The notes below the pieces were generated by a model that saw nothing but the letters and a program-made list of their open reading frames with translations, had not been told where the DNA came from and did no database searches. 64,000 bases of DNA from Verrucomicrobiota bacterium (GTDB lineage Bacteria; Verrucomicrobiota; Kiritimatiellia; CAIVKH01): contig JACKPT010000006.1 in the NCBI GenBank assembly GCA_024233345.1, positions 84,959-148,958 on the forward strand, read 5' to 3'. Both the position numbers and the translations under genes were made by a program. Shown piece after piece: positions 10,717 through 31,500 of this stretch. Position 1 is the first letter of the stretch. The number at the start of each line of letters is the position of its first letter.

Positions 10717-13700
10717 ATGATAAAGCATACCATGATCGTTTCCGTGATAGCTGGCGTGTTGCTGACCGCCCAAGCAGGCGCCTACGAGATCTACTCGGCC
10801 AAAAAAGGCGTGGGGCAAACAAGCGGCGGAAACGGGATGTCCCCGCGGATTCAAAAGAACCGGATCGAAACCTTGCGGTGCAGTTGGTATTACACATGGG
10901 GCATCAACACGCGAAACGCCATCGTGGACCCCATGGTCGAGTTTGTTCCCATGAAATGGGGGGGCAACTCACTCCCGGGCAGCAACACGATGACCGAAGA
11001 TTTGGCTGCGCTTTTTACCCCGGAATGGGCTGGCTTTACCCCGGTCACTCACTTCTTGGGATTCAATGAGCCCGAGCATGTCGAACAGTCCAACGTATCG
11101 GTTGCCCATGCCTTGAGCGTCTGGCCGCTTCTGGAGGCGGCGGCGGCCTCGAACGGAATTTCTTCGATCGGAAGTCCAGGCTGCACGGGCGCGGACGGAC
11201 AAGATGGTCAATGGGTGACGAATTTCATGACCCAGGCCGGCACGCAGGGGCTGCAGGTTGACTTCATGTCTTTCCACTCGTATCCGGAGCCGACCAGCTC
11301 GACCATGCTATCCGAAGCCGCGACGTACTATAGCCGTTACGGCCGGGATGTATGGCTCACGGAGTTCAATGCGGCGGATTGGACGGCGCCCAATAATTAC
11401 ACCCACGAGCAATCGTATACGTGGATGGCGGAAATGCTTCACCGCCTGGAGAGCACACCCTATATCAAGCGCTATGCGATCTTCCCATGGGATGCCACCT
11501 ATGGCACACAAGCATCAGCATCGCACATCTTTGAGATTGATGTACCCAGCCCCGGGGTGACGAATCGCACCGCAATTCCCACCCCGCTCGGAAAACTGTA
11601 TGCCGTTTATCGGTCGTCCGACATCGACGGACCCTATCCCGGGGTCACCTACTACCTCCACAACAAGGGCAACCACCGACGCCTCTGGCATGACGGAGTG
11701 ACCCCGTCAACCGCTGATGTTTATACGGAAGGCGCCTCCGTGGATTTCAGGCTCGTCGATGCCGGCAGCGGCCGTTTCTACATCGTGAACACCGACGGCG
11801 CGAACCAGCGACTGGGCTACGACGGGACCAACCTCTTTTGGAGCAGCAACAACACCGGCGGCTCCGACCTGTGGAGTCTTATCGACAACGCCAACGGATG
11901 GAAGTATATCCGCCATGCCGGCACCGGGAGGCGGCTTGGCACGGCGGGCGGATCCGCCCTGACGACGGGCTCCCCCACCGCCACAGCGGACACCTACAAC
12001 TGGGCATTCATACGCTCGAATACCGGGGAATTCCCGTGGACCCCGCTGGTCAGCGACGACTTCGAGTCCGGGGGCTGGGGCAACTGGGTGGATGGCGGAA
12101 TCGACGCGTCCCTGGGCGGCATTTACTCCGCCAACGGCTCGCCCTGCATCAAGCTGCAGGACAACAGCGGCGTGGATTCGTCCACATGGCTGGCGAGCTC
12201 TCTGGATCTGACCGGGTACTCCGTGGTCACGATAGACTTCTCCTACATCGCGGTCGGCATGGAAAGCGGGGAGAATTTCCTGCTGCAATTCAGTGCCGAT
12301 GGCGGCTCGACATGGACCACCATCACCAACTACGTCAGCGGCACGGATTTCGACAACGCAATCCACATGCACCCCACTGTGACTATCGGCACCAACGACG
12401 TCCCCTTCACGACCAACGCGAACATCCGCTTTCAATGCGATGCCAGCGCCGACGACGACGCCGTCTTCATCGACGACATCGGTATCTACGGTTACGCCGA
12501 TGTGGTGACCACCTATGAACCATTTTTCTGGGCGAGCCCGATGGCCGCCGAAGATGCCTTGATCGATTCGACCTACAATCGTTCTATCGTCGGCGCCGCC
12601 GCCGATCTCGACAACGATACGTTGTCTTATGAGAAAACAGCAGGTCCGGCCTGGCTGACGATCGCGACCAATGGTGTGCTTTCGGGCACCCCGACCGCCG
12701 GAGATATCGGTCTCAACACCTTCACCGTCGAAGTCTCCGACGTAGACGGCGGCCGAGCCTCGGCGACTCTGGACATCCTGGTCAAGTCCGGCGCCATGCT
12801 GGTCGGCGACGCAACATGCAACGGCAACTTCAACGCCAACCCCGGCGTCGCAGTGGACTTTGCCAGCACCCCGTCATGGTACAATCTCGGCGGCGCGCAG
12901 ACCGTGGAATGCACACGCAGCAACCTGCCCTATGACGCATCCCAGAATGCAGTGTTGACCAGCGATAAGATCTTCGCGGTGGATACGGAACATACACTCA
13001 CTATGGGCGAGCGCTTCGACCTACGCTATGTATGGCGGGATGCATCGGGCTGGCTCGACGGCGTTGACCAACTGAGCGTCTCCCTCTTCGTCACCGATGA
13101 CGACACCCTGTTTGGCGTGCGGTCGAATCTGGTGCAGGATTGGTCCGGCCTCTCCACCGTGGACAGCGCCTACGAATCCGTCGAACGCACCGGGGTGTAC
13201 ACCGCGACGGCATCCGTCGCAGGCAAGCGGTTGTTTGCCGCCATCGAGGCCCCGTCTGCCTCCGGCTTCGCCCGGTTGGACAATTTCGAACTGATTCTCG
13301 TGGGGGAGAATCCCCCGTATTTCTGGTCGGACCCGATGACGGTTGCGGATGCGGTGGTCGATACGTCCTTCAACCATTCGATCGCCGGCAGCGCCGCCGA
13401 TATCAACGAGGATCCGCTGACCTACGCGAAGGTGGGCGGTCCGGACTGGCTGAATCTTGCCGGAAATGGCGTCCTGTCCGGCACGCCGACCTGGCGGGAT
13501 GTCGGAACGAATGCCTTTACCGTGCAGGTTGGCGACGGCAAGGGCGGTTTCAGCACAGCGACCCTGATGATCCGGGTCAAGTTCACCGAGGTTCTGGTGG
13601 GCGGACCCACCAGGAACGGGGACTTCAATGCCAACCCAGGCGTCGCCGTGGATTTTGCCGGTACCGCGGCATGGTACAACCTCGGCAGTTCACAGACCGT

Positions 13701-14517
13701 GGAGTGCACCAAGAGCAACCTGCCCTATGATGATAACTCCCAGAATGCCGTCTTGACCGGGGGCAGAAATTTCGGGGTGGACACAGAGCATGCTATCGCC
13801 GCAGGAGACTCCTTTGACCTCCGCTATGTGTGGCGGGATGCCTTCAACTGGGTGGATGAAGCCGACCAGATCACGGTTTCGCTCTTCATCACGGACGACG
13901 ACACCCTCACAGGCATGCGTTCGAACCTGGTGCAGACTCTTTCCGGCCTTTCATCGATGGACAACACGTACGAGTCGGTGGAACGCGGCGGGATCTACAC
14001 CGCAACCGCCGCGATTGCCGGCAAGCGTCTTTTCGCTGCCATCGAGACAGACGCTTCCGGATTCGCCCGTCTGGATAATTTTGAACTGATCGTTTCGCCA
14101 GAAATCGCGCCGGGATACGATGCCTGGGGAATGAGCCACGGCATGACCGGGATTCTGGCGCTGGCGACCAATGACTACGATGCCGACACCTGGAATAATC
14201 TGCTGGAGTACAGCCTGGCCGGCAACCCCACCAATCCACTGGTCACCGGTATGGAGCCCATCTTGGCGGGTCTTGGCCAGAGCGGAGGAACGAGTGGGGT
14301 TGTCTATGTCCACCTGCAGCGAACCAACCCGATCCCTGGACTCACCTACACGCTCCTGCAGACGAAAAACCTCCTGAACCAGCCATGGAGCAACTGCGTG
14401 GACACGGTGGTCACGGGTACGGGTCCGGCGCCGGACAGCGACTTCATCACGGTCACCAACTGGATCCCCACCAACGGAAAGACCGTGGAATTCATCGGAT
14501 TGCAGATCGGACCGTGA
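10717..14517 (+). CDS. 1266-aa secreted multidomain glycoside hydrolase (Glyco_hydro_cc/PF11790-like core, ricin-like repeats, beta-sandwich, 2x [putative-Ig + unassigned module], C-terminal module)
   Basis: Signal peptide; KKGVG...CSWYYTWG...VEFVPMKWGG...FLGFNEPEH...VWLTEFN in the catalytic core. Beta-trefoil-like repeats (YYLHNKG..RLW, FYIVNT...QRLGYDG, WKYIRHAGTGRRLG). He_PIG-like segments DTLSYEKTAGPAWLTIATNGVLSGTP and DPLTYAKVGGPDWLNLAGNGVLSGTP. NLLEYSLAGNPTNP precedes the terminal beta-rich domain. Confidence 0.75.
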   Translation: MIKHTMIVSVIAGVLLTAQAGAYEIYSAKKGVGQTSGGNGMSPRIQKNRIETLRCSWYYTWGINTRNAIVDPMVEFVPMKWGGNSLPGSNTMTEDLAALFTPEWAGFTPVTHFLGFNEPEHVEQSNVSVAHALSVWPLLEAAAASNGISSIGSPGCTGADGQDGQWVTNFMTQAGTQGLQVDFMSFHSYPEPTSSTMLSEAATYYSRYGRDVWLTEFNAADWTAPNNYTHEQSYTWMAEMLHRLESTPYIKRYAIFPWDATYGTQASASHIFEIDVPSPGVTNRTAIPTPLGKLYAVYRSSDIDGPYPGVTYYLHNKGNHRRLWHDGVTPSTADVYTEGASVDFRLVDAGSGRFYIVNTDGANQRLGYDGTNLFWSSNNTGGSDLWSLIDNANGWKYIRHAGTGRRLGTAGGSALTTGSPTATADTYNWAFIRSNTGEFPWTPLVSDDFESGGWGNWVDGGIDASLGGIYSANGSPCIKLQDNSGVDSSTWLASSLDLTGYSVVTIDFSYIAVGMESGENFLLQFSADGGSTWTTITNYVSGTDFDNAIHMHPTVTIGTNDVPFTTNANIRFQCDASADDDAVFIDDIGIYGYADVVTTYEPFFWASPMAAEDALIDSTYNRSIVGAAADLDNDTLSYEKTAGPAWLTIATNGVLSGTPTAGDIGLNTFTVEVSDVDGGRASATLDILVKSGAMLVGDATCNGNFNANPGVAVDFASTPSWYNLGGAQTVECTRSNLPYDASQNAVLTSDKIFAVDTEHTLTMGERFDLRYVWRDASGWLDGVDQLSVSLFVTDDDTLFGVRSNLVQDWSGLSTVDSAYESVERTGVYTATASVAGKRLFAAIEAPSASGFARLDNFELILVGENPPYFWSDPMTVADAVVDTSFNHSIAGSAADINEDPLTYAKVGGPDWLNLAGNGVLSGTPTWRDVGTNAFTVQVGDGKGGFSTATLMIRVKFTEVLVGGPTRNGDFNANPGVAVDFAGTAAWYNLGSSQTVECTKSNLPYDDNSQNAVLTGGRNFGVDTEHAIAAGDSFDLRYVWRDAFNWVDEADQITVSLFITDDDTLTGMRSNLVQTLSGLSSMDNTYESVERGGIYTATAAIAGKRLFAAIETDASGFARLDNFELIVSPEIAPGYDAWGMSHGMTGILALATNDYDADTWNNLLEYSLAGNPTNPLVTGMEPILAGLGQSGGTSGVVYVHLQRTNPIPGLTYTLLQTKNLLNQPWSNCVDTVVTGTGPAPDSDFITVTNWIPTNGKTVEFIGLQIGP

Positions 14518-15120: not shown

Positions 15121-15795
15121 TTATCCGCGCTTGCGAATGACCGCGAGAACGACGAGGCCCAGGCTGAACAGCGCCAGGGTACCCGGTTCCGGTACCACGG
15201 CGACCACGATGTTATCCACCCGGGCAAAATCGCCGCTGCCCAAGCCGCCATTGATCCCATAGGTTTGGATAAACAGCGTGCGGCCCGCCGCCGACGCCGA
15301 GACCGCCGCAGTCTGCCCAGAAACAGACTCCCAGGTCGCTGCGGTCGTCACCTTATCCAGAACCCACTCCCGCCAGATTTCCGTGCCGGTCACCGCGTTG
15401 TCGTTGTCATAAGCAGCCACCGCGACACGAACCTGGTCGTTGGCCTCCCAACCCGCAGCGTCACGCCAGTCGTAGCTGATGTTGAAATAGTCACCAAGCT
15501 GAAGCGTGTAACCGGTATTGACGGAATGAACGACTGCGCCGCCCAGTCCGTTGTCCGAAATCACCGCGTTCCAGCCGGACGCGGGGGCAGCCGACAATGT
15601 GTCGTTCACGGCGGTCGCGGTTTGGTTGCCGGTTCCGATGTTGTACCAATTTGGCGTCTGGTCGAAGGTTCGGGCCCCCGACCCCGTCGCACTGGTGTCG
15701 AAGGCTCCGTTCAAGTTTGTGGCATCCATGATGATGTCGGCGCGAATGGCGGCCGCCGACATACATACCAGTGCCGTTACAATTGCTCTCTTCAT
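15121..15795 (-). CDS. PEP-CTERM protein carrying one (divergent) copy of the unassigned module
   Basis: Signal peptide MKRAIVTALVCMSAAAIRA. Module motifs FDQTPNWYNIGTG, GDYFNISYDWRDAAGW and GDFARVDNIVV. C-terminus VPEPGTLALFSLGLVVLAVIRKRG is a PEP motif + TM + basic tail. Confidence 0.85.
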   Translation of the reverse strand: MKRAIVTALVCMSAAAIRADIIMDATNLNGAFDTSATGSGARTFDQTPNWYNIGTGNQTATAVNDTLSAAPASGWNAVISDNGLGGAVVHSVNTGYTLQLGDYFNISYDWRDAAGWEANDQVRVAVAAYDNDNAVTGTEIWREWVLDKVTTAATWESVSGQTAAVSASAAGRTLFIQTYGINGGLGSGDFARVDNIVVAVVPEPGTLALFSLGLVVLAVIRKRG

Positions 15796-15874: not shown

Positions 15875-17863
15875 TCATTTCGGCGAATCCACCACCCGGA
15901 GAGCGTACGAAGGTCCGGCACCTGGTGCTCCGAAGACCATGACATTGGTGCCATCGGCGAAGCTGTTTGTGATCAAAGTCACCGGAATCCACACTTGTGG
16001 TTCGGCCAAGAGATCCGTGGTGTATTCAACTGCAGGCTCATGCGTAGAGACGCCGGTGGCGTGCAGGGTGAACGACGGACCCAAGGTGAACGTGGTCACG
16101 GAAACCATGTGCGCAAGGGCTGTGCCCGGATTGGCCAGTAATTGCACGTCATCGACCGGCGCGAAATCGTCGCCGTCGCCGTTTCCGTCCTGCACATCGA
16201 TGAGCATAAACAACCGCTTGCCAATAAATGCCCCGGTGGCAGCGGGTGAATCCGCCTCCATCATCTCAAAGGTGTTGCTCAGCGTGGAGGCCCCCGACAG
16301 CAGGGACGCAAGCACGGTCTGGGTTCCCCCGATCTTGTCGTTGTCGGTCACGAACATTCGGACCTCGACCTGATCGGCAGGATCCCAGCCATTGCCGTCC
16401 TTCCACACCAGACTGACCCGGAAAACGTCGCCTGAACCGATGGTGTACACCGGATTGATGGACAGGATACGATTGGAACTCGAAGCGGCTACCCCGAAGC
16501 GGGTGCCGTCGAATGGATCATTGGTGCGGGTGCACTCTGCGGTCTGGCCCTGTGCACCCAGATTCCACCAACTGGGAGTCTGCTCAAACGTGCGGCTGAT
16601 TGCGTCGGACGTGTCTTCATTGAAGTCACCGTTGTTCACCCCGGGACCGACAAGTACTTCATCGGCCGGAGGATTGACGACCAGTTCGAGGTTGTCGAAC
16701 CGGACGAAATCGTTGGCATCACCGTTGGCATCGTCGATGTACAAGCCGGCAAAGAGTTTCTTGCCCGCCCAGGCGGGGTCCGCAGGGGTGGATACGCCGG
16801 ATTCCTCCTGATATTGATTGTCGTTATTCGACAGCAGGGAGACCATGCTGGCGACTACGGTCTGGTTGCCAAGGATTCCGTCGTTATCGGTGACAAACAG
16901 CCTGATTTCCACCCGATCCTGAGCATCATCAAACCCGCTCGCATCCCGCCAATCGTAGCGAACCCGGAACACATCACCCGGACGCACGACATAATCCGTG
17001 CTCTGAGCGGGCACCCGGGATCCGGACGAATTCAGCACCGCATTCCGGGTATTGTCCACCGGAAGGTTGGTGCGCGTACACTCGAGCGACTGGTCGATGC
17101 CGGTTCCAATATTGTACCAACCTGGGGTGACGTCAAAATTCCGTGAATCGGTCGTCGACACATCGTCATTGAAGTCGCCGTTCCGCACCCCTGGTCCAAT
17201 CAGGGTCTCACTGACCGGATCAGGATTCACCGTCAGTTCAAAGTTGTCCAACTGCGCAAAATCATTGGTGTCTCCGTTCCCATCCATGATGTACAGGCCC
17301 ACAAACAGCGTTTTTCCGACTGCGGCAGGTGCGACCACGGGGGTGATTGCGGTTTCGGCCTGGTAGGCGTTCGAGCTGGCGGATGCTTCCGATAACAGGC
17401 TCGCCACCATAGTCTGGGTGCCGCCGATCAAGTCGGTATCCGTCACAAAGAGTCGGACCTCTACCCGGTCAGCGGGGTTCCACTGGAACCCATCGCGCCA
17501 CTCGTATCGCACCTGGAAAAAGTCACCGATCTGGTTGGTGTATCCGGTGTTTTGTGCGTGCACCCGGTTCCCGTCGGACGACAAGACAGCGTGGCGCGAC
17601 CCATCAACCGGTAGATTGGTCCGGGTGCATTCTACACTCTGGTCCGAGCCGCTCCCGATATTGAACCAGTTGGGGGTCACATCGAAGTTCCGCGAATCGG
17701 TTGAAGATACATCCGCATTAAAGTCCCCATTGCGTACCCCCGCGCCAATTAGGACCGTTTCCGCAGCAACATGACACGAAAACCCGATCGTCGCGACCAG
17801 TACGACTGCCCACCTTTTGATTACTCCCGTCTGCCTGTTCACCCATGCTCCTGTCATCATCAT
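15875..17863 (-). CDS. secreted protein with three tandem copies of the unassigned module plus a C-terminal beta-rich module
   Basis: ATG 17863 is preceded by GGGAGGG. There is a signal-like segment IKRWAVVLVATIGFSCHVAA. The block NGDFN..SR.F..TP.W.N.G...ECTRTN...W[RK]D...LFVTD...GK.LF...DNxEL occurs three times. The tail is ...VEYTTDLLAEPQVWIPV...YALRVVDSPK. Confidence 0.8.
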   Translation of the reverse strand: MMMTGAWVNRQTGVIKRWAVVLVATIGFSCHVAAETVLIGAGVRNGDFNADVSSTDSRNFDVTPNWFNIGSGSDQSVECTRTNLPVDGSRHAVLSSDGNRVHAQNTGYTNQIGDFFQVRYEWRDGFQWNPADRVEVRLFVTDTDLIGGTQTMVASLLSEASASSNAYQAETAITPVVAPAAVGKTLFVGLYIMDGNGDTNDFAQLDNFELTVNPDPVSETLIGPGVRNGDFNDDVSTTDSRNFDVTPGWYNIGTGIDQSLECTRTNLPVDNTRNAVLNSSGSRVPAQSTDYVVRPGDVFRVRYDWRDASGFDDAQDRVEIRLFVTDNDGILGNQTVVASMVSLLSNNDNQYQEESGVSTPADPAWAGKKLFAGLYIDDANGDANDFVRFDNLELVVNPPADEVLVGPGVNNGDFNEDTSDAISRTFEQTPSWWNLGAQGQTAECTRTNDPFDGTRFGVAASSSNRILSINPVYTIGSGDVFRVSLVWKDGNGWDPADQVEVRMFVTDNDKIGGTQTVLASLLSGASTLSNTFEMMEADSPAATGAFIGKRLFMLIDVQDGNGDGDDFAPVDDVQLLANPGTALAHMVSVTTFTLGPSFTLHATGVSTHEPAVEYTTDLLAEPQVWIPVTLITNSFADGTNVMVFGAPGAGPSYALRVVDSPK

Positions 17864-17983
17864 ACCCTCCCGGTACCAACCGCGATCGGGCCGGCACCGC
17901 CACCCCGACACATCGATACCATTTTATTTATTCGATCACACACATCCGTCATGTTCCGACTTACCCTGCCTCCAACCTAGCCC

Positions 17984-19648: not shown

Positions 19649-19896
19649 CCTTCTTTTCATTTTTTCTCACCCCCCCGCGTGGCGGCACCAAGTCATATCA
19701 ATCCGACCGCCAAAGCGAGGCGGGAAGGGCAACTTCACCCGGATGGCATCCGGGATTTTACACCAGGCAACACTTGCATTATGTTCTCCTTTACAGTGCA
19801 CCAATACGCGATGACCTGCGGGCAGGCCCAGCGGGATCAAGGACCGAACAAGAAGTGGACCCGGAAATCTGTATCGTGTGAACGGAAGTGAGACCC

Positions 19897-22800
19897 ATGA
19901 AGCAACTCCGCCTGCTTGTTATTGTGCTGCTGCCTCGGATTCTCCATGCCGCCCCCATCACCCAAGGGGATGTGACTCTTGCGCTCGGTCCCGACTTTCT
20001 TCTGGATGATGCGGCAACCGGGGGCGGAGATACCAACCTCGTCACCGCAGAATTTGACCGGGACCTCACCGGTCTGTGGATCGGCACGGCAGGCTGCGAT
20101 GCATCGATTTCCGGTATCGGGTGGGCCTCCCCCGCAGGCGGTACCACCGCCACCCTCGCAACAGTCACCATCACCTACCTCGGGGCGGACGGGGCCGAGG
20201 GCGGCGGGGACGATGTCGGTTTCGGCTCGGTTACCGACACCCTGAACTTCACGGGAGTGGGCGAATATTTCTGGCAGTTCGACACCCCCCTCACCAATCG
20301 GATTGACGGCTCCAACACCACCTTTCGCATTCGCATCGAGGCCAACGACCACATCCGCTACAAGGTTGACGCCGGCGGAGCCAAGATCAGCGTGGCGGGA
20401 ACCTCCGCCGCCCTCGGCGACCCGATAGAGCTGCTGGCCGATGGCGGGTTCGAAAACCTGACCGTGACCGAACCGGACGCCGCCACCTCCCCGTGGGTCT
20501 CGGACAACCAATGGGACAACTTTGACGTGGTGCGCGAAACCAACGTGGTGCGGAGCGGCGCTCAATCTCTCCGACTCGGCTACGACGGGCACAACGATGC
20601 GCGGGTGCTCCAGATATCCGGAACCGCCAACGCCTCCCTGAACTACGCCCTGACCTTCTGGGCACATTCGTCGAACTCCAACGACCCTGCAGTGCGGGCT
20701 GAATTCCGGACCGACAATGGCGGAGGGTATGACTTCATCGCAACCGGAACCACCTTCAAAACCGAATCCCAATGGACCCCGCACGTCCTCTACGTGCCAG
20801 CCTCCGCGCTGGCCGGCCGGAGCGGTGAGCTGATCCAGGTACGTCTCCGACGCAACGACACCAAGGGCACGGTGTTCCTGGATGACCTCAGCCTCCAGAT
20901 CGTGCCCTCCATCGGCATCCCCCTCACCGGCATCCAGGGTCTCCCGCCGCACTTCCAGCATCCGAATGGCGGCTACCTGCCGCCCATGTTCCCGTTTGTC
21001 GACCGGTTCGGGCAATACAAGCATGCCACGTGGCGGGAAAAGGTTGCCGACGAGAGTGGTCTCGCGGCCTCCGCCGCAGCGGAGGCGGCGGACCTCGCGG
21101 CCAACCCCGGCTCCCCGGAATGGAACCTGTACGGCGGGTGGGACAACGGCCCCACGCGTACTGCCACCGGCTATTTCCGGGTCGAAAAGGTCAACGGGCG
21201 GTGGTGGTTCATCGATCCCCTCGGCAAGCTGTTCTTTTCCCACGGGATCACCGCCGTGAATACGGATTCAGCGGGAACCTCGGTCACCGGACGGGAGGAC
21301 TATTTCGAGGGCCTGCCGGAACCGGGCGATCCCGACGAGGCCTTTCTCACCATCGGCCTGATGTATCATGAGGAGGCCAATGCATTCCGAAAATACGGGA
21401 CCAATTGGGTGGAAACCCTTGCCGACCTCGCCCATCGCCGACTCCGGAGCTGGGGCATGAATACCATCGGCTCTTGGTCGGATTCCGCCATCTACCTGGA
21501 GCGGCGGACCCCCTATAGCCAGGTCCTCTATGCAGCACCCGGAAGCAGCCTTGCCCCCGGCATCCCCGACTACTTCAACAGCGCCTTCGGCCCGAATGTG
21601 GCGGCCGCCCTGAACAACGCCCTCGCCCAGGGTATCGGGGAGGATCCCTGGTGCCTTGGTTTGTACTTCCACAACGAGCTGGAGTGGGCGCGACCCAACA
21701 TGGTCGCAGTCAACGACATCGCCAAAGCCGCCATCCGCAAGGGCGCCTCGCAGCCGGGAAAGATCGCGTTCCGGGACATGCTCCAGAACACCTACAACGA
21801 CAACATCGCCGCCCTGAACACGGCGTGGGGAACCAGCTACGCCAACTGGAATAGCTTCCTGACCTCGACCAACCTCCCCAACGAAATCCTCGCCTCCCCG
21901 GATTACCGGGATTTCTATTTTCTGTATGCCAGCACCTATTACGCCACCATCAAGGCCCAGTTCACCGCCCACGCCCCCAACACACTCTATCTCGGCAGCC
22001 GTTTCACCAGCAATCCGCATGCACTGGCCGCCGAGGCCAGCGCGCTGTACGCGGACGTCAGCACGTATCATCCCTACCAGGTCACCCCAAATGTACCCCC
22101 GGCCTTCCTCGATGCCGATGTCCCGGTCCTGATCAGCGAGTGGCATTTCACCGCGCGGGATACCGGTCTGTATGGCGACGGTCTGCAAACGGCGATCGAT
22201 CAGGCCGACCGGGCGCAGAAGTACCTCGGCTATGCAGGATTCGCGGTCGATCACCCCAATCTCGTGGGCATCCACTGGTTTATGTATTACGACCGCCATA
22301 CCACCGGGGACTCCACCGGCCAGAACCTCGGGGCGAACTACCAGACCGGGTTCCTCACCATATGCGACGTTCCCTACATCCAGACCATCCAGGCCTCACG
22401 TCAGATCGGCACCGAGATGTATGGGCGCCGGTATCAAAGTTTCCCGCCCGAAATTGGATTTTCCCTGACCAGTTACCCCGACATTGAGGACTCGATACCC
22501 TATCAGGCTCCATTCAGCCTCAGCGACGACAGCTCCCCGCCCGAGAACCTCTCGGTATCAGCCTGGTCCGCCAATACCAACTTCATTCCGGATTCCGCCA
22601 TTGTAATCACCGGGACCGGGTCCAACCGCACCTTGTCCGTCACCCCGACAACTGCCGACCATTCCGGTGGGTTCATTACCGTGCGCGCGATCGATGCGTC
22701 GGGTGTACGAGCGGAAACCCCGGTGTTCTTCCTGCAGGGTCGGCCGGAGATGGCCCTGGACGTTCCCAGCTCCGGTCAACCCACGCTTTCCTGGATATCG

Positions 22801-22956
22801 ATCTCGAACATTAGCTATCAGGCCGAAGCGACCCTTACCTTCGAGGAATGGACCAGCACCGGCGTTCCATTACCCGGAACCGACGGCACACTGGAGACGG
22901 GCATACACCCGGGAAATCCGGGGGGCGCCTATCGCCTGAAGCTGATCCTGCCCTAG
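19897..22956 (+). CDS. ~1020-aa secreted clan GH-A-like glycoside hydrolase (family not assigned)
   Basis: Signal peptide MKQLRLLVIVLLPRILHA. DRFGQYKHATW...YFRVEKVNGRWWFIDPLGKLFFSHGI, FHNELEW (candidate acid/base NE) and VLISEWHF (candidate nucleophile). Ig-like segment. Terminal module ...LSWISISNISYQAEATLTFEEW...GAYRLKLILP. A GTG at 19888 is an alternative start. Confidence 0.7.
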   Translation: MKQLRLLVIVLLPRILHAAPITQGDVTLALGPDFLLDDAATGGGDTNLVTAEFDRDLTGLWIGTAGCDASISGIGWASPAGGTTATLATVTITYLGADGAEGGGDDVGFGSVTDTLNFTGVGEYFWQFDTPLTNRIDGSNTTFRIRIEANDHIRYKVDAGGAKISVAGTSAALGDPIELLADGGFENLTVTEPDAATSPWVSDNQWDNFDVVRETNVVRSGAQSLRLGYDGHNDARVLQISGTANASLNYALTFWAHSSNSNDPAVRAEFRTDNGGGYDFIATGTTFKTESQWTPHVLYVPASALAGRSGELIQVRLRRNDTKGTVFLDDLSLQIVPSIGIPLTGIQGLPPHFQHPNGGYLPPMFPFVDRFGQYKHATWREKVADESGLAASAAAEAADLAANPGSPEWNLYGGWDNGPTRTATGYFRVEKVNGRWWFIDPLGKLFFSHGITAVNTDSAGTSVTGREDYFEGLPEPGDPDEAFLTIGLMYHEEANAFRKYGTNWVETLADLAHRRLRSWGMNTIGSWSDSAIYLERRTPYSQVLYAAPGSSLAPGIPDYFNSAFGPNVAAALNNALAQGIGEDPWCLGLYFHNELEWARPNMVAVNDIAKAAIRKGASQPGKIAFRDMLQNTYNDNIAALNTAWGTSYANWNSFLTSTNLPNEILASPDYRDFYFLYASTYYATIKAQFTAHAPNTLYLGSRFTSNPHALAAEASALYADVSTYHPYQVTPNVPPAFLDADVPVLISEWHFTARDTGLYGDGLQTAIDQADRAQKYLGYAGFAVDHPNLVGIHWFMYYDRHTTGDSTGQNLGANYQTGFLTICDVPYIQTIQASRQIGTEMYGRRYQSFPPEIGFSLTSYPDIEDSIPYQAPFSLSDDSSPPENLSVSAWSANTNFIPDSAIVITGTGSNRTLSVTPTTADHSGGFITVRAIDASGVRAETPVFFLQGRPEMALDVPSSGQPTLSWISISNISYQAEATLTFEEWTSTGVPLPGTDGTLETGIHPGNPGGAYRLKLILP

Positions 22957-23088: not shown

Positions 23089-24246
23089 ATGTATAAACGG
23101 GTTTTGTTTTCCACCAAATGGTACGAGATGCGGGTCCATCAGGGGGTCTTGGACTACGCGCAACGACACGGATGGGACGTTATCTCCTCCCATCACATGC
23201 CCGAATCTGCATTCAACATCCCCGCGCTCGACGGACAGATCGTGGAAATCGGCCCGAATGACCGTCGGCGCCGCCAGCTCACCGAGGCCTTCCCGGGTCC
23301 GGTGGTCGGGCTGGAAGATTTTGGCGCGGGGCTTGAGGTCCCCCGGGTGCATACCGACAACTATGCGGTGGGATGCCTCGCCGCGGAACATTTTCTCGAG
23401 CGTGGCTTCCGCCGGTTTGCCACCCTTTGCCGCGCCGACTATGCCTATGTGCGGGACCGCCTTCGCGGGTTTCACGACACAATCGGCGGCATGAACGGGG
23501 GCCTGCCCTGCCTGGATATCAAGCTCAAGACCTTCTGGAGCGATACCAATCACGTTGGCAAGGAGTACCGGGCCTCGAGCCTGCAGAAACTTCTGGCCAT
23601 TGATCGGCCGGCTGGCGTGTTCTGCGTGGATGACGATGACGCGGCAGGCCTGATTCGAAGTCTGATCAAACGGAACGTTTCGATCCCCGAGGAAATTGCC
23701 GTTGTCGGAGTCAACAACGACCCCTTGACCTGCCCCTATGGCCTCGTGCCCATCACCAGCATCGACCCCGGTTTCGAGAATATTGGCTACCGGGCAGCAG
23801 AACTTCTCGACCGGATGATGCAAGGAAAGCACATCCCCCCGAAAACCCACCTTGTTCCGCCACGGGGTCTCGTGGTGCGGCGAAGCTCTGATATCCGAGC
23901 GGTGGAGGACTTACAAGTCGCCCGCGCCCTGCGCTTCATCTGGGATCACCCCGAAAACCGGAAAGCCGTCGCAGACATCGCGGCCCACGTAAAATTACCG
24001 ATCCGCACCCTGCAGTGGCGGTTCAACAAGGCCATGGGCTACTCCCTTCAGGACGAGGTCACCAAACTGCGGATCGAACGTATTAAGGAACGGCTGATCC
24101 AATCCGACAAATCCATCCGCCAGATCGCGGATGAAATGGATTTTTCCTCCGTTCAGTACCTGATCCGTCTCTTCCGAAAAGAGACCGGCGTGTCTCCGCT
24201 AAAATTCCGACGGCAGCATAAACCGAACCCGCCCGCCGTAGCATAA
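23089..24246 (+). CDS. XylR-like hybrid regulator (periplasmic-binding/LacI-like sensor + AraC HTH)
   Basis: AAGGAAA lies upstream of the ATG. The N-terminal sugar-binding-like fold includes GVFCVDDDDAAGLIRSL...IPEEIAVVGVNND. The C-terminal AraC HTH is ...IADIAAHVKLPIRTLQWRFNKAMGYSLQDEVTKLRIERIKERL...IRQIADEMDFSSVQYLIRLFRKETGVSPLKFR. Confidence 0.85.
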   Translation: MYKRVLFSTKWYEMRVHQGVLDYAQRHGWDVISSHHMPESAFNIPALDGQIVEIGPNDRRRRQLTEAFPGPVVGLEDFGAGLEVPRVHTDNYAVGCLAAEHFLERGFRRFATLCRADYAYVRDRLRGFHDTIGGMNGGLPCLDIKLKTFWSDTNHVGKEYRASSLQKLLAIDRPAGVFCVDDDDAAGLIRSLIKRNVSIPEEIAVVGVNNDPLTCPYGLVPITSIDPGFENIGYRAAELLDRMMQGKHIPPKTHLVPPRGLVVRRSSDIRAVEDLQVARALRFIWDHPENRKAVADIAAHVKLPIRTLQWRFNKAMGYSLQDEVTKLRIERIKERLIQSDKSIRQIADEMDFSSVQYLIRLFRKETGVSPLKFRRQHKPNPPAVA

Positions 24247-24258: not shown

Positions 24259-25551
24259 TCAGACAACCGGCGAACGGTGGCGGAGCCGCCAAACCCCACA
24301 CCCGACCAGCCCGCTGACCAACACCACCAGGGCCACCACACCGAATGCCGGGATCATGACCAGGTTCGGGTTCACCACCAGGGTGAAATTGTCTAAGCGG
24401 GCGAAGTCGTTGGCGTCACCATTGGGATCGTAAATATGGATGCGGACAAACAGGTTTTCACCGTCAAAGGCTGCGCTGGCCGGGTCGGTGGTCCCGGACG
24501 CAAGTTGCCAGGCAGCGTTCTGGGTCGATAACCCCGACCGGAAACTGGCCAATTCGGTTGGCGTACCCCCGATCAAGCCATTGTCGGTGATATACAAAGT
24601 CACCTCGACCTCGTCCTGAGCGTCGTCGAAATCCTGACCATCCCGCCAGGCATAGTTGATCATGAACGTGTCGTATTGCTGGATCTCATACCCTGGATTG
24701 AGGGCATGAATGCGATCTGGACTGCTGAACAAAACCGCGTTGCGGGTACCATCATATGTGCTGTCGTTGCGGGTTGCTTCAGCATCCTGATCATATCCGG
24801 TTCCAATATTCTGCCAGGAAGGTGTCAAACCGAATGACCGGCTGTTATCCCCCGAGGTATCCTCGTTGAAATCTCCATTGTACACCCCCGGGCCGATCAG
24901 GGTGCCCGCGATCGTCTGGTTTGCCAAAACAATCAGATTATCGAACCGGGCAAAGTCATTGCCATCGCCGTTGCCGTCATCGATCTCTACCGCCACGAAC
25001 AGTCGCTTTCCAACAAACTCGCCCGCCACCGGTTTGGAATAAAACCCGGAGAACACCTCGTACGTACTGTCGGCAGTTGAATAACCGGAATAAAAGTTTT
25101 CCATTGTTGTCTGTGTCCCCCCGATGAGGTTGTTATCCGTGACAAACAACCGAACATTGATCCGGTCCTGATCGTCATCGAAGTTAAACGCATCCCGCCA
25201 AACATAGCTTACGCTGAAGATGTCGCCCTGAGCGATATCGTGCCCGGTGTTGAGCGCGTGGCGACGACTCGGGTTGCTGTAGATCACCGCATTACGGGTT
25301 CCGTCATAATCTTGATTGCTGCGGGTGGCCTCTTCGGTCTGTGCGCCTGTCCCCAGGTTCCACCAGGACGGCGTCACCGAGAAATTCCGACTGTCGGTGG
25401 CGGAGACATCGTCGTTGAAATCCCCGTTGTTGATTCCCGGCCCCACGACGATGGAGGCTGCTCCGGCGGGCAGCCCAACCACCCCCCAGACACCTGCGAA
25501 TATCGCGGCAATCCACCGGGTGGCGACTTGATGCATGATTCGATTCGACAT
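24259..25551 (-). CDS. secreted/anchored protein with two tandem copies of the unassigned module and a TM + basic C-terminus
   Basis: ATG 25551 is preceded by GGAGAAGG. N-terminal signal RWIAAIFAGVWGVVGLPAGAAS. Two module copies. C-terminus NLVMIPAFGVVALVVLVSGLVGCGVWRLRHRSPVV is PEP-CTERM-like in architecture but has no PEP motif. Confidence 0.8.
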   Translation of the reverse strand: MSNRIMHQVATRWIAAIFAGVWGVVGLPAGAASIVVGPGINNGDFNDDVSATDSRNFSVTPSWWNLGTGAQTEEATRSNQDYDGTRNAVIYSNPSRRHALNTGHDIAQGDIFSVSYVWRDAFNFDDDQDRINVRLFVTDNNLIGGTQTTMENFYSGYSTADSTYEVFSGFYSKPVAGEFVGKRLFVAVEIDDGNGDGNDFARFDNLIVLANQTIAGTLIGPGVYNGDFNEDTSGDNSRSFGLTPSWQNIGTGYDQDAEATRNDSTYDGTRNAVLFSSPDRIHALNPGYEIQQYDTFMINYAWRDGQDFDDAQDEVEVTLYITDNGLIGGTPTELASFRSGLSTQNAAWQLASGTTDPASAAFDGENLFVRIHIYDPNGDANDFARLDNFTLVVNPNLVMIPAFGVVALVVLVSGLVGCGVWRLRHRSPVV

Positions 25552-25873
25552 GACCTTCTCCTTCCGCGCGCAACGCCCATGAACCGGCGCCACTTACTGC
25601 GTAATAATTACCTAAATATTGCTATATTACGCATGCGTAGTAAAGCTTTTTTCAATGTTTCCCTCTATGTCGCGATCGCCCTCCCCCGGGCGATGGACCG
25701 TGGACAACAACGGGGTAAAAGGAGAGGGATGCTGCATTATTTTGTTATTTTTATTGCATTTTCATGCATATTATGCCAACCTTACACCCTAGCACTGAGG
25801 TCGTGCGGCGACCCGGACGCCCGGCGTCGGGACAAGGGAACGCCCCCGAACCACACTCAAGAAGGAGAAAAAA

Positions 25874-26358: not shown

Positions 26359-27591
26359 ATGTCGGAACAAAAACAACATGGGAAAGACGGGCATCCGCCG
26401 ATAGCGGACAACTTTCTTCTCCAACTCCTGCGCCGTACCCCCGACAACATCTATTTCAAGGACGCTGCGGGACGATTTCTACTCATCAGCGACGCGATGG
26501 CCCGGTATTGCCATTACGCAGATCCCGCAGACGCTCGCGGTAAGACGGACTTCGATATTTTTTCCGAGGAACATGCACAACAGGCCTACGAAGATGAACA
26601 GTCAATCCTGAAAACGGGAACCCCCATCATCGGCAAGGAGGAAAAAGAAACCTGGCCGGATGGTCATGAAACCTGGGTGAGTACATCCAAGGAGCCGTTG
26701 TTCGATGACGAAGGCAGCATCATCGGCACCTTTGGCATCTCCCGTGACATCACTGCACGCAAGGAGGCCGAGGCCCGGGCCACCCGCTATGCGGAACGAT
26801 TGAAAGCGGCCAACGACGGGATGCTCGCGGACCTCGCGCTGGCGGGCGACCTCCAAACCGCCTTGCTACCGGGAGAATATCCGGTGTTCCCACCCGGAAC
26901 GAATCCAGAACACAGCACCCTGCGTTTTGCCCATGTCTATGAGCCGTCCCAGACGGTCAGCGGAGACTTGTTTTCAGTGCACCCTCAATCGGACACCGAA
27001 GCCTTTATTTTTATCAGTGACGGCATCGGCCACGGAGTTCGGGCCGCCTTGTTGGCGTCCATGTTGTCTGCCTTGCTTCGCGATCGGATCCGGGCTGACC
27101 ACAGTCCGGCCGAATGCCTTGCCCGGCTCGATCGCAGCCTGCGGGCGATTCTCAAAGCCCAGGAGGACGTCCTCTTCGCCACTGCGTTTTGCCTCACGGT
27201 GAACGCCGGGAACGGGGAGGTGACCTACGCGAACGCGGGACACCTTTCCCCGTTGATCCTCCGAGGCGGATCCGGCACGGTCGAACCACTGGAGACAGGC
27301 GACAAATCCAGCGGACCCGCACTCGGGCTCATGGAGAACGCCACCTTCCGGTCCGGAACCGCCCGGCTATATCCCGGCGACCGGATGATTCTGTTCACCG
27401 ATGGCCTCATCGAAGCGGTGGATGCCCGGTCGGAACCGTTCGGCGAACAACGCCTCGCATCATGCCTGAAGCAATACGCCGACCACTCGCCTGCGGAGAT
27501 GCTGGCGCATGCGCTGGAGACCGCCAGAGCGTTTGGCGGCGGACGATACTTTGAGGATGATGTCTGCGCGGTATGTGTAGAGCGGAACTGA
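26359..27591 (+). CDS. PAS-domain PP2C/SpoIIE-family serine phosphatase (RsbU-like)
   Basis: The N-terminal PAS segment is ...FKDAAGRFLLISDAMA...GKTDFDIF...ILKTGTPIIGKEEKETWPDGHETWVSTSKEPLFDDEGSIIGTFGISRDITARKEAE. The C-terminal PP2C-like region has SGDLFSV...ISDGIGHG...ANAGHLSPLI...LFTDGLIEA. Confidence 0.85.
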   Translation: MSEQKQHGKDGHPPIADNFLLQLLRRTPDNIYFKDAAGRFLLISDAMARYCHYADPADARGKTDFDIFSEEHAQQAYEDEQSILKTGTPIIGKEEKETWPDGHETWVSTSKEPLFDDEGSIIGTFGISRDITARKEAEARATRYAERLKAANDGMLADLALAGDLQTALLPGEYPVFPPGTNPEHSTLRFAHVYEPSQTVSGDLFSVHPQSDTEAFIFISDGIGHGVRAALLASMLSALLRDRIRADHSPAECLARLDRSLRAILKAQEDVLFATAFCLTVNAGNGEVTYANAGHLSPLILRGGSGTVEPLETGDKSSGPALGLMENATFRSGTARLYPGDRMILFTDGLIEAVDARSEPFGEQRLASCLKQYADHSPAEMLAHALETARAFGGGRYFEDDVCAVCVERN

Positions 27592-27597
27592 TGGACC

Positions 27598-28536
27598 TTA
27601 CCCGGCGGGCAGGACCGCCTGTGCCTGTACCAGCCGGTTGAGCAGCTCCCTCACCCGCCGCTTTGCATAATCCGCTTGCCGGGAGTCCGGGTGTTCGGTG
27701 AGAAAAGTCCGGAAAGCGGTCAGCCGGGTATTCACAGAGAACCGATCTCGGTCATAGAATTGCGCACATTGAAAGGCGAGGGCGTGAATCCGGCGGATGG
27801 TTTCCTCGAGCATGCGTTCTGCGGTACCCCGGTAACACCCGCTGGAGCCATGAGCCAGATAAGCCTCCAACACCCTTCGCGCCGACCGCGCCCGGTCCAG
27901 ACCCTCGCGATTGGACCGGGCGTCCCAGTACAGGATCCGCGCTTCCCCAAAAAATGCACGGTCATGCCATTCCCCCTCCGATTCCGCTGCCGCAGCATAG
28001 CGGTAATAAACGGTGGCGACTTCGGGTTGGCCGGCCTGCTCGTAATACAGGCCGAGATGGTACTGCACCCGGGCGGCACGGGGAGCCTGGGGATCGTTGA
28101 GATACACCTTCTCCAGCATGTCCTTCACGAGGGCGTGCGATCGGCGCCCGGGCTCCTGCCCGTCGGGGCTTTCCGGGGACATTAACCGGATACAAAGGTC
28201 GAGTTGCCGGTCATTGGCTCGACTGCGGAATCCCGGGTACTCATCGGCCACCCGCTGGTACAGACGGAATGCCTGCCGATCCCGGCCCTCCCGCTCGAGC
28301 AGCTCGGCAAGCTGGAGCCGCGCTTCCGCACATTCGCTCCGGCCGCGGTACCGGGAAGCAATGCGCACGAGGATTTGGCGCGCTTGAGCGTACTCGTCCT
28401 GCCGGATTCGTTTTGCAGCTTCCTCAAACAGGACAGACGCATCCGGATCATCCGCCCTGGCACACGACAGCACTGGTGCGAACAGGGGAAGCAAGGCCAC
28501 TGCCCACCCCGCCAGCCACAGGGCGGTCGGCCTCAT
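27598..28536 (-). CDS. TPR lipoprotein, BamD/YfiO-like
   Basis: Lipobox LFAPVLSC, then TPR-like helices (...EYAQARQILVRIASRY..., ...AFRLYQRVADEYPG..., ...VQYHLGLYYEQAGQPEVATVYYRYAA...). ATG 28536 overlaps the stop of the upstream 1512-aa gene (ATGA on the minus strand). Confidence 0.6.
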   Translation of the reverse strand: MRPTALWLAGWAVALLPLFAPVLSCARADDPDASVLFEEAAKRIRQDEYAQARQILVRIASRYRGRSECAEARLQLAELLEREGRDRQAFRLYQRVADEYPGFRSRANDRQLDLCIRLMSPESPDGQEPGRRSHALVKDMLEKVYLNDPQAPRAARVQYHLGLYYEQAGQPEVATVYYRYAAAAESEGEWHDRAFFGEARILYWDARSNREGLDRARSARRVLEAYLAHGSSGCYRGTAERMLEETIRRIHALAFQCAQFYDRDRFSVNTRLTAFRTFLTEHPDSRQADYAKRRVRELLNRLVQAQAVLPAG

Positions 28537-31500
28537 GGCGCCTCCATGTACCGGTAGGCCCGGACCTTGCCGGGAGGAAGCTCCAACGGAGAGGGGCGCC
28601 CGCTTGCCGGATCGCCGGCATCGTACCAGAGAACATTTGCACTCGCGGCGGTGACCGCGCCTGCCGACCGCCAGCCCGGATCCTGCGGCGTGTCCTGCCA
28701 ATCGATGGTATAGATCTTCCCTGGCTCCGTATCAAGGCATAGCTCGATCGCGGGTGGCTCTCCGGGCTCGATCGACAAGCGCATCCGGGTGATCAACAAC
28801 GGCGCGGCCCCGAAACCGGTCACCCCGCCAGGAGTGGTGGCAGTCAGCTCGAAGTTGTCCAGGCGCGCAAAGCCGTTCGGGTTTCCGTTCCCGTCCCACC
28901 CGTTGATCTCCACAAACAACTTTTTTCCGGCCGCTCCGGCACCTGCGGTATAGAACCCGGAATGCTCGAAGGACTCGTAGGCGGAATTGACGGTGGAGGC
29001 CCGCGAAGTCGAGGTCGCGAGCACGGTCCGGGTTCCAGAGATCGTGTCGGAGTCAGTCACAAACAGGGTTACCACGATCCGGTCCGCCCCGTCGTTCCAG
29101 TTGAATGCGTCGCGCCAGACATAGCTCACATCGAACAGATCGCCGAGGGAGATCTGGTATCCAGTATCCATGCCGGCGATCACGGTGTCGGTGTCGGTAA
29201 CCACCAGGTTGCGGGTGCCGTCAAAGTCGAGATTGAGCCGGGTGGCCTCCAGGGTCTGATCAGGTGCCGTCAGGCCGGTGTTTTGCCAGAACGGGGTAAC
29301 CGCGTAGTTACGGCTGTCCACCGCGCTGGTATCCGCGTTAAAGTTGCCATTCCGAATGTCGCCCCCGATGATTGCGGTAACGGATGGTCCACCCACCGCA
29401 GCAGCGGTGAACAGGTTGGATATCGACACTTCCGGCAGTTCGTCGGTCCAAAGCGCGACCTCATCGAGGCCGCCGGGGTGGTTGGCCCCGTCATCGCGAC
29501 GCCATGGGGAGAATCCGCCAGCGCTGCCGTTGCCGAGAATCCATCGGGAGCCGTCGCCGATTACTGCGGTATCATCAAGGTCGAGAACCCCCTCGGACAA
29601 GGTTCCGCCGACCGGGCTCAGCCACCAGTGCACTTCGCCCGCGTCCCGCGTGTCATCCCACGACAGGACGAGCAGGTACCATCGCGAGACTGGAAGTACC
29701 CCGGGATGAATCAGTGCATCGGCATCCCCAACCTTGAGGCGTAATCCGGTGAAGTCCACATGTACCACATTCAGTGCGTTGCCGGATCCCGTGTCGGTCC
29801 CCTGAGCAAGTAGATGCGCAAACAGCAGGGGCGCATCCGGGGTACGGAACAGAATTGACAGGGTTCCCCGGGCGCCGATGAGGTCATCCTGGTCGAGCGA
29901 GGCGTTGAAGGTGTTCATCCGGACCGACGACCCGGCCATGCCATAGGCATCATCACCAAACGTTGTTCCGGCGGCGACAAAATCCGCAACCGGCAGCGCA
30001 CCCGCGTTGGTGTAGTTGCCATCGAATCGGAACCAGTAGTCGGGATCGAGTGCGGTGAGGGTTTCCTCCAGATTCGGAGGCGGCGGGATCACCGACAGGA
30101 TCGCGGCCGCCGACGTAACCGATCCAAAATCGTCGAAGACCACTGCCCGGTATTGGTCGTTGCTCATCCCGGTGGTGACGGCCGGAATAGTCAGGGTGGC
30201 ATTGGTCGCGCCCGCATAAACCACTCCGTTGGATAACCATTGATAGGTGAGCGGCCCGATCCCGTCAGCGGCGACGGTAAACGAAGCCGGATCGCCGGAT
30301 GCCACCGTAAGATCTGCGGGCGGTGCGGTGACCGTGGGTCCTGCATAGAAAGTCGTATGGGACTGGAACTGGAGCTTGACCTCATCCTCGGTCAATTCCC
30401 GGAGCCAGAACGCGATTTCATCCACCGTTCCCGATTCGGTCCCCACCCGCAGCGCGTTATCCCACTCAACGCCGTTGCGGTGCCCCACATAGACCGGACC
30501 ATCGTCCCCGAACACATCTGTATTACCGACATCGACCACCCCGGAGTCGAGCGGACCGTCCAGTGGCCCGAGGTACCAGATCGCCTCCCCGGGGTCGCGA
30601 TCGAGATCCCAGGTCAGGGCGAAGTAATACCAGGTGTCCTGGAGAGGTTGACCGCTGATGAGGGTTGTGGTCACAGATCCGAGCAGCAGGGTCAGGCTGG
30701 CTGGGGAGAACCGCATGCTGAACGCATTACCGGAGGCCGGTGAACCGCCCTGGGCGAATACATGGCGGTTTGCACCGTCGAACGGCAGAGCCGGGGTGCG
30801 GAACAGAAGGGAAAATGCACCACGGTCGGAAACCATGTCGGCGGCTTGCGCGACATGATCGAACCCGCCGACAAGGTCAAAGGCATTGGAGGCATTGCCG
30901 AGGTTATCCGTGCCCCGGGGAAGGCGGTTTTTCACGTAGTTCCCCTCTGAGGTCAGATCGGCAGCGGGCTGGGCTCCGAAGTTCGCGAGCGTGTCATCGA
31001 GCGGAAACCAGTAGTCGGGTTGCTGACTCAGCACCGCTTTCTGGTAGACCCGGACCGGGGTTACCGTAACCGTGGCAGGCTGGGAGGTAACGGTGCCGAT
31101 GGCATTGGAGACAAACACGGTGAGTTGGGCTCCGTCATCCGCCAGGGTGACCCCGAGGCTGAGGTCGGTATTGGTGGCCCCAGGGATCGGCGCGCCATCG
31201 ATCCGCCATTGATAGTGGATCGGCCCCTCGCCAATGGCCTGCACCGTAAATCGGCCAGTTGCCCCGTCTGGGATCGTCTGGGAAACCGGATGGGTAACGA
31301 TGGCCACCGCTCCCGATGGCGCGGTCAGGGCCCCGAATTGGGTGGCCAGATCGAGCGGGGTCAGTTCCCGGTGCCAGATCGCAACCTCGTCCAATGCCCC
31401 CGGCCGCCCATCCTCATACCAGCTTTCCCACTGCCGGAAATCCCGGTTGGCGAGAATGAATGGCCGGTCATCATTGCCCGCATTCGAGGTATCGCTTACG

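Follow-up and report, generated by a model that had tools for sequence, protein, structure and literature searches.

The stretch of DNA analysed here (hereafter the window) comprises 64,000 nucleotides of contig JACKPT010000006.1 from a Verrucomicrobiota bacterium (assembly GCA_024233345.1, positions 84,959 to 148,958). Five signal-peptide proteins encoded in it, designated A to E, together hold nine collinear copies of a module of about 175 amino acids (168-180 in each copy), and these nine segments are homologous copies of one domain. Structure prediction indicates an autonomous all-β domain with a jelly roll of the type known from carbohydrate-binding modules (CBMs), and the module family is probably uncurated and a candidate for a new CBM family. 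Because a CBM fold is combined with an extracellular location, attachment to enzymes, stand-alone surface display and a setting in degradation loci, we infer glycan binding and consider it reasonably likely that the module is a non-catalytic, extracellular jelly-roll domain that binds polysaccharide.

Nine copies of one domain in five proteins

A profile hidden Markov model (HMM) built from the nine copies and run against the six-frame translation of the whole window returned precisely these nine domains and no others, and it gave zero matches on 180 shuffled segments. HMMs built with one protein left out at a time recovered every copy, with E-values (scaled to a nominal database of 1e6 sequences) between 2e-31 for module B1 and 1e-66. 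The copies are pairwise 27-72% identical, and 19 columns are invariant in the alignment of nine. B1 is the most divergent copy, showing 27-33% identity to the others and the weakest leave-out result (E = 2.2e-31); the corresponding value for A1 is 1.9e-43, and A1 and A2 are 72-73% identical. In protein A, residues 597-861 and 862-1126 form two units of 265 aa, each composed of an immunoglobulin-like (Ig) domain and a module, with He_PIG/Big_9 matches at residues 623-689 and 875-952. The two units share 65% amino acid and 71% nucleotide identity and represent a true tandem duplication. The first-pass annotation of the window had described nine collinear copies in five secreted proteins, the doubled Ig plus module unit in the 1266-aa protein and B1 as the most divergent copy, all of which are borne out by the translations, the motif search, the HMM and the identities above, and its coordinates agree with the new boundaries to a few bases. 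The ordered motifs that it listed are valid as a consensus, but B1 deviates from several of them (NGAFD, VAVAAYDND, GRTLF), and A1 and A2 lack both the SRxF motif and the D/N/G-rich loop preceding the last strand.

Read by eye, the N-terminus of each of the five proteins shows basic residues, a hydrophobic segment and an Ala-rich motif of the cleavage type. Protein B, which NCBI names a PEP-CTERM sorting domain-containing protein, ends in a PEP-CTERM region (residues 201-223) that scores above the cut-offs of PF07589 (27.2 bits; cut-off 20.7) and TIGR02595 (24.2 bits; cut-off 16). From the signal peptides and anchors, an extracellular location is predicted for the module, in line with the original proposal. 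The C-terminus of protein D (24259-24372, minus strand) consists of a hydrophobic helix followed by RLRHR (PAFGVVALVVLVSGLVGCGVWRLRHRSPVV) and looks like a PEP-CTERM-type anchor; it contains no PEP motif and gave no PF07589 match in the Pfam scan. A D-like relative, P0025, ends in a similar tail. Pfam and NCBIfam scans revealed no recognised membrane anchor in proteins A, C and E. The NCBI records of the window proteins, from metagenome-assembled genomes (MAGs) named Kiritimatiellia or Verrucomicrobia bacterium, read "hypothetical protein" or "PEP-CTERM sorting domain-containing protein".

The core of protein A matches PF11790 at residues 51-259 (E = 4.9e-38, Pfam scan), a family annotated as CAZy glycoside hydrolase (GH) family 128 in PMC9830802, and it is called GH128-type here on the strength of that match. 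Two further segments of this protein are putatively lectin-like, namely residues 343-420, with a weak ricin-B-like match (E = 0.0046), and residues ~442-600 (12040-12516, plus strand; DDFESGGWGNW...FIDDIGIYGY), with a weak Reelin-subrepeat-B match; the latter segment shows no relation to the module family in hhalign with a single-sequence template. Protein A also carries a second domain at its C-terminus (residues 1129-1266; 14101-14514, plus strand; ~120-138 aa), which opens with a Ca-loop-like motif (NDYDADTWNNLLEYSLAGNPTNP), closes with ...EFIGLQIGP and has no Pfam or NCBIfam match. A jackhmmer search detected this domain in ~30 large (>=330 aa) fetched representatives of the module family, where it nearly always stops 0-35 residues from the protein end; this fixed position suggests a sorting or anchoring domain.

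Predicted fold and search for an existing family

AlphaFold2 modelling of the module gave a predicted local distance difference test (pLDDT) value of 82 with the nine-copy alignment, and a pLDDT of 96 with a predicted template modelling score (pTM) of 0.91 when 40 diverse family sequences were used. The latter model contains about ten β-strands and no long helix and points to an autonomous all-β domain, consistent with the β-rich, self-folding module initially envisaged. The generic description of a CBM in CAZy includes a discrete autonomous fold, which is indicated here by the pLDDT of 96 and by the lone module of at least 48 representatives; it also includes occurrence within carbohydrate-active enzymes, which is observed in protein A and in fusions to PF11790, GH16, SASA, chondroitinase B and sulfatase domains.

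A Foldseek search of the PDB with the predicted model returned 71 chains at E = 1e-3 or better, with a probability of 1.0 and template modelling (TM) scores of 0.45-0.65, and all of them are jelly-roll proteins (CBM, MAM, Stig-cyclase or related domains). The top matches are Stig/HpiC1 cyclases (TMq 0.60-0.65, TMt 0.56-0.61, E ~1e-5, 13-16% identity). CBM22 of C. thermocellum Xyn10B matches with a TM score of 0.51-0.53 (0.51-0.55 with Xyn10C included), and further matches comprise CBM16, CBM15, CBM30, CBM28 and CBM4 (1ulo), as well as the meprin MAM domain, Vip3Aa domains and gingipain adhesin domains; TM scores for CBM16, CBM4 and MAM are about 0.5, and none of the best matches exceeds 16% identity to the module. 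HpiC1 has been described as a flattened β-jelly roll whose nearest structural homologue is a xylanase CBM, PDB 2Y64 (bioRxiv 10.1101/173674). All of these matches therefore belong to one fold class, HpiC1 itself being a CBM-like jelly roll, and the module is predicted to adopt a CBM-type β-jelly roll (CBM4/9/16/22-like, "galactose-binding-domain-like"), which agrees with the CBM-like fold first surmised.

The module resembles CBM4, CBM9, CBM16 and CBM22 in size, in structure (Foldseek probability 1.0, TM 0.5-0.55 over ~160 columns), in its single or tandem attachment to secreted glycan-active enzymes and in carrying N-terminal NGxF[EN] and C-terminal xDNxxL strand motifs. In contrast to these CBMs, it has no sequence-level match (7-17% identity to the solved CBM structures listed), is confined, as sampled, to bacteria of the Planctomycetota-Verrucomicrobiota-Chlamydiota (PVC) group, and stands alone in about half of the fetched members, most of which are PEP-CTERM-anchored. 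The family consensus starts with NG[DG]F[NE] and ends with FARxDNxxL. An NGxF start and a DNxxL end are the usual first- and last-strand pattern of CBM4/9/22-type modules, a signature that the terminal motifs of the module resemble. Three Trp residues (W32, W89 and W95, model numbering) are 91-98% conserved in the family and, together with several conserved Asp/Asn residues, might contribute to sugar stacking or to a Ca2+ site.

The similarity to Stig cyclases bears on whether the module could itself be a catalytic domain, that is, a small jelly-roll enzyme of the Stig-cyclase type or a minimal glycoside hydrolase or lyase. These Ca-dependent enzymes (PF22825; hapalindole biosynthesis) are its nearest structures (TM 0.60-0.65), and share its flattened jelly roll with ~200 aa; in addition, several Asp residues of the module family are highly conserved (D86, D95 and D169, family conservation numbering). 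However, the cyclases are cyanobacterial, dimeric enzymes of secondary metabolism that are neither arranged in tandem nor appended to enzymes, whereas the tandem repetition of the module and its attachment to already complete enzymes are non-catalytic behaviour. Up to E = 10, none of 40 diverse modules gave an HpiC1-like (PF22825) match; two such matches among full-length multidomain relatives probably lie outside the module, because no module alone yields one. Moreover, no jelly-roll family of glycoside hydrolases or polysaccharide lyases (GH11, GH12, GH16, PL7) is found in the top 50 fold matches, and the Stig cyclases are themselves CBM4-like and derived from the CBM fold (bioRxiv 10.1101/173674). 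A catalytic function of the module is thus very improbable.

Scans against NCBIfam release 20 and Pfam-A (models up to 2025) covered the five full-length proteins, their nine modules and a set of 40 diverse modules. They gave no match on the module at a curated threshold except DUF1510 in protein C (28.6 bits, over the model cut-off), which was judged spurious, covering just 26 residues (488-513) within C3. CBM_4_9 (PF02018; gathering score 25.9 bits) matched none of the nine window modules at E up to 10. Among the 40 diverse modules, DUF4627 matched two (E = 1.7e-4), and the BT_4411 hyaluronan-binding family likewise matched two (E = 0.057). Searches of PDB chain sequences, among which many CBM families are represented, with 9- and 40-sequence profiles returned nothing significant. 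Weak NCBIfam PEP-CTERM-family matches that reach into the module of protein B were attributed to its tail because they were gone once tail-less modules were scanned. The model NTTRR-F1 (NF033675) aligns over positions 2-135 of 155 to one divergent member (E = 2.5e-6, 27.7 bits), which suggests remote homology; this score is nevertheless far under the curated cut-off of 70, and the model matches two of the 40 modules and none of the nine window copies. No description of the module was found in the literature on PEP-CTERM and CBM proteins in PVC bacteria or on NTTRR-F1, for which no functional study came to light either. Ten more representatives of the family, the most divergent among them, are nameless or "hypothetical protein" in every source. 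The first-pass annotation could not place the module in a named family, and Pfam-A, NCBIfam and PDB sequences likewise provide no assignment.

Distribution, partners and gene neighbourhood

An HMM search of 1.84 billion representatives yielded 339 clusters (50% identity) at E <= 1e-3 and 101 at E <= 1e-30. A single module is present in 148 of the 165 fetched members, two modules in 12, three in four and four in one. Eighty-three of the 165 are shorter than 320 aa and consist of a signal peptide and one module, and 48 of these short members end in an xPEP motif followed by a hydrophobic stretch and an Arg-rich tail. All 40 module loci surveyed in species-representative genomes are from PVC bacteria; this survey, which started from a three-sequence alignment, is skewed to the A/E-like subfamily because it was based on the peptide patterns VWRDA[FS][NG]W or GFARLDNF. 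As far as sampled, the family is small and occurs in PVC bacteria alone, with members in Kiritimatiellia, Verrucomicrobiota, Planctomycetota and Lentisphaeria.

The partner domains counted in 56 multidomain relatives are PF11790 (8), Big_9 (8), He_PIG (8), sulfatase (6) and Laminin_G_3 (5), followed by the rarer GH16 (4), SASA (2), β-helix (2) and chondroitinase B (1). The cultured Roseibacillus ishigakijimensis KCTC 12986 has a sulfatase fusion, a Lentisphaeria MAG has a SASA esterase fusion, and F5/8-C and LamG domains accompany the module in a Phycisphaerae MAG. The association of the module with sulfatases and glycosidases, first noticed in the window, therefore extends to direct fusions in relatives (PF11790, GH16, sulfatase).

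These partners are relevant to an alternative in which the module has no carbohydrate ligand and is a protein-binding or structural element (adhesin, oligomerisation or spacer domain) comparable to MAM or gingipain adhesin domains. The Foldseek matches include meprin MAM, gingipain K1/K3 adhesin and Vip3Aa domains, the partners include subtilase, PhoD-like phosphatase and Ig/cadherin-like repeats, and few residues are conserved family-wide. On the other hand, once the cyclases are set aside, the best fold matches are genuine CBMs; glycan-active enzymes are the most frequent catalytic partners, and relatives are encoded in loci with many sulfatases and GHs. The three conserved Trp residues are typical of sugar-stacking platforms, although they could equally be core residues. 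Taken together, a purely protein-binding or structural role is quite improbable.

A second alternative concerns what the bound polysaccharide would be. The module might serve for retention by binding the capsule, exopolysaccharide or envelope of its own producer instead of a nutrient glycan. PEP-CTERM proteins are tied to exopolysaccharide-producing bacteria through the exosortase system, and proteins A, C and E, having no recognised membrane anchor, would need another means of attachment. Kiritimatiellales isolates are reported to produce sulfated glycosaminoglycan (GAG)-like exopolymers (PMC7356697). Nevertheless, many fetched members (the 48 of the 83 short ones) consist of the module alone with a PEP-CTERM anchor, and in these a module that did nothing but anchor would be superfluous. 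Its regular attachment to degradative enzymes is a pattern of substrate targeting, and the separate C-terminal domain of A-type proteins is a better anchor candidate. Retention on the producer's own polymers is accordingly rather unlikely, and binding of polysaccharide as a substrate is the reading followed below.

The gene content of the window, with a GH112 lacto-N-biose phosphorylase, a GH29 fucosidase, two sulfatases and two SASA-type esterases, marks the neighbourhood of the modules as a predicted glycan-degradation locus, and the window gene scans agree with the sulfatases and glycosidases originally noted beside the modules. Similar settings are found for relatives: P0012 and P0013 have sulfatases, PF11790 proteins and further GHs as neighbours, and P0012 adjoins a SASA esterase; locus L041 repeats the pairing of a B-type PEP-CTERM protein with an adjoining module-bearing PF11790 enzyme; and in locus L043 two adjacent single-module genes are located amid sulfatases, GH39, GH4 and a PF11790 protein. 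Of the 40 module loci, 20 have a sulfatase within 10 kb, in five cases as a fusion with the module, but PVC genomes are sulfatase-rich and no enrichment is claimed.

With respect to the history of the copies, nine modules in 17 kb are exceptional, since loci elsewhere hold one or two modules per 20 kb and four at most. Mutual nearest relatives occur only within one protein (A1/A2, 73%; C1/C2, 62%), whereas A, B, D (D2) and E have modules that share 60-68% identity with counterparts elsewhere and 30-52% with the modules of other window proteins. The nearest relatives of B1 (64-68%) are P0011 (68%), P0026 (67%) and P0012, of which P0011 and P0012 are single-module PEP-CTERM proteins and P0026 is a three-module PF11790 protein. 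D2 is nearest to the second module of P0025 (60%), a 431-aa protein with the architecture of protein D (two modules plus a C-terminal helix), and E1 is 60% identical to the module of P0045 (2439 aa), which also has the tail of protein E. The modules of protein A reach 61% with P0038, and C1 reaches 59% with P0023 (667 aa), which has the same three-module architecture as protein C. A recent local gene burst is ruled out by these nearest-neighbour identities and by the 62-74% nucleotide identity of the tandem copies. Because their closer counterparts lie in other genomes, the five genes appear to be old co-located paralogue lineages, and the sequences point to older tandem duplications inside genes. 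The proposed local expansion thus stands for the tandem duplications within genes but not for the five genes themselves.

The coordinates of the modules, the proteins and other features of the window are summarised in Table 1. Regulatory genes flank protein D, and a GntR/periplasmic-binding-protein regulator has an equivalent setting in locus L043. A 1022-aa open reading frame (ORF; 19888-22956, plus strand), situated inside the module cluster between a sulfatase gene and the regulator, has no Pfam match at E <= 1e-3, and the same holds for the ORFs 41313-44165 (plus strand, 950 aa) and 33090-34211 (minus strand, 373 aa). Weak CBM_4_9 matches below the cut-off of 25.9 bits are located in the GH29 fucosidase (residues 188-301; 3536-3877, plus strand; 22.9 bits) and in a 417-aa ORF at 48104-49357 (residues 36-139; 48941-49252, minus strand; 21.5 bits); hhalign with single-sequence templates revealed no profile-level relation of either region to the module family. 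No exosortase was found among the window ORFs scanned. The ORF of the group II intron (50971-52521) encodes reverse transcriptase (RVT_1) and maturase (GIIM) domains.

Table 1. Module-bearing proteins, module copies and other features of the window
Feature	Coordinates	Strand	Description
Protein A	10717-14517	+	1266 aa; NCBI hypothetical protein MCB1069147.1; signal peptide, PF11790 (GH128-type) core, ricin-B-like, jelly-roll segment, (Ig + module) x2, C-terminal domain
Module A1	12796-13299	+	Protein A residues 694-861
Module A2	13591-14094	+	Protein A residues 959-1126
Protein B	15121-15795	-	224 aa; signal peptide, one module, PEP-CTERM anchor
PEP-CTERM anchor of protein B	15130-15195	-	Residues 201-222
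Module B1	15196-15735	-	Alignment, leave-out HMM
Protein C	15875-17911	-	678-aa ORF; 655 aa from internal GTG; signal peptide, three tandem modules with short Pro-containing linkers, 83-aa tail
Module C1	17228-17755	-	Alignment, HMM, leave-out test
Module C2	16676-17206	-	Alignment, HMM, leave-out test
Module C3	16133-16657	-	Alignment, HMM, leave-out test
Protein D	24259-25593	-	444-aa ORF; 430 aa from Met; signal peptide, two tandem modules, C-terminal hydrophobic helix
Module D1	24922-25452	-	Alignment, HMM, leave-out test
Module D2	24373-24903	-	Alignment, HMM, leave-out test
Protein E	28533-33071	-	1512-aa ORF; signal peptide, Ig (I-set/Ig_3) and LamG (Laminin_G_3) domains, one module, 99-aa tail
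Module E1	28839-29375	-	Protein E residues 1233-1411; copy modelled with AlphaFold2
Regulator flanking protein D	23089-24246	+	AraC-type helix-turn-helix fused to periplasmic-binding-protein-like sugar sensor
Phosphatase flanking protein D	26359-27591	+	PAS + SpoIIE (PP2C)
Second PEP-CTERM protein	34334-35125	-	263 aa; PF07589 21.6 bits; module-free by HMM
tRNA gene	36149-36221	-	Rfam RF00005, 74.6 bits
Group II intron	50835-52521	+	Rfam group-II-D1D4-3 at 50835-51001, 99 bits

Function and significance of the module

In the favoured mechanism, the module would bind polysaccharide, and its effect would depend on the architecture in which it is deployed. Fused to an enzyme (GH128-type, GH16, sulfatase, sialate-O-acetylesterase-type or polysaccharide lyase family 6-type), it would keep the enzyme on its substrate, and tandem arrangements of two or three modules would raise avidity. 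Where a single module is flanked by a signal peptide and a PEP-CTERM anchor, it would hold glycan at the cell surface, a role comparable to that of the surface glycan-binding proteins of Bacteroidota utilisation loci. The SusE/SusF-like proteins of Bacteroidota are a functional analogue, being small, anchored proteins with a CBM-like β-sandwich encoded in glycan loci; unlike the PEP-CTERM forms, they are attached by a lipoprotein anchor, belong to a different phylum and have no sequence relationship to the module.

Several observations weigh against glycan binding. The structural likeness to CBMs is at the level of fold only (TM 0.65 or less, root-mean-square deviation ~5 Å), and the same fold serves non-glycan roles in MAM domains, Stig cyclases, Vip3 toxin and gingipain adhesin domains. 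No sequence-level link to known CBM families was found with Pfam, PDB profiles or hhalign: CBM_4_9 matched one of the 40 diverse modules at just E = 0.41, and the best PDB profile match, CBM70 of hyaluronate lyase (E = 0.17), spans only profile positions 6-87 of 180, towards the N-terminal end. When the family profile was aligned by hhalign with three other jelly-roll segments from the window (protein A residues 442-600, the CBM_4_9-like region of the GH29 fucosidase and ORF 48104-49357), no E-value was better than 0.1, single-sequence templates being a weak test. Some partners are not carbohydrate-active enzymes, namely a PhoD-like phosphatase in a Verrucomicrobiales clade of ~1500-aa proteins and a subtilase in a Kiritimatiellae MAG, and the neighbourhood of relative P0003 is otherwise unrelated to glycan degradation, its sole GH43 gene lying ~8 kb off. 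Finally, the modules are uniformly acidic (median pI 4.14), with no hint of a basic sulfate-binding surface. Charge was dismissed as an indicator of ligand sulfation: outside the modules these proteins are just as acidic, and the charge of the modules (pI ~4.1) is therefore uninformative.

A more specific proposal, which is tentative, is that the module represents a new PVC-specific CAZy CBM family. The lone PEP-CTERM forms would then be the surface glycan-binding proteins of polysaccharide utilisation loci (PULs) in PVC bacteria, capturing sulfated or fucosylated marine or host glycans at the cell surface. Forms with tandem modules or a fused enzyme would bring GH128-type hydrolases and sulfatases onto the same polymer. 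Since the loops are acidic and rich in Asp/Asn, contacts with the glycan might be mediated by Ca2+.

Members of the PVC group (Kiritimatiellia, Verrucomicrobiota, Planctomycetota and Lentisphaeria) play a major part in the breakdown of sulfated and fucosylated polysaccharides. To our knowledge, they do not possess the Sus-type surface machinery that accounts for glycan capture in Bacteroidota. The module is a candidate new sequence family of a well-known kind, the CBM-like jelly roll, with a restricted range and an unusual stand-alone deployment with PEP-CTERM anchors. Should glycan binding prove wrong, the module would remain a well-defined and confidently modelled domain that merits a family entry. 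If glycan binding is true, it would constitute a new CBM family, provide an annotation handle for proteins now called "hypothetical" (339 clusters at 50% identity) and be a candidate for the means by which PVC bacteria hold substrates at their surface and target sulfatases and GH128-type enzymes to them. The cultured carrier Roseibacillus ishigakijimensis KCTC 12986 makes the module experimentally tractable.

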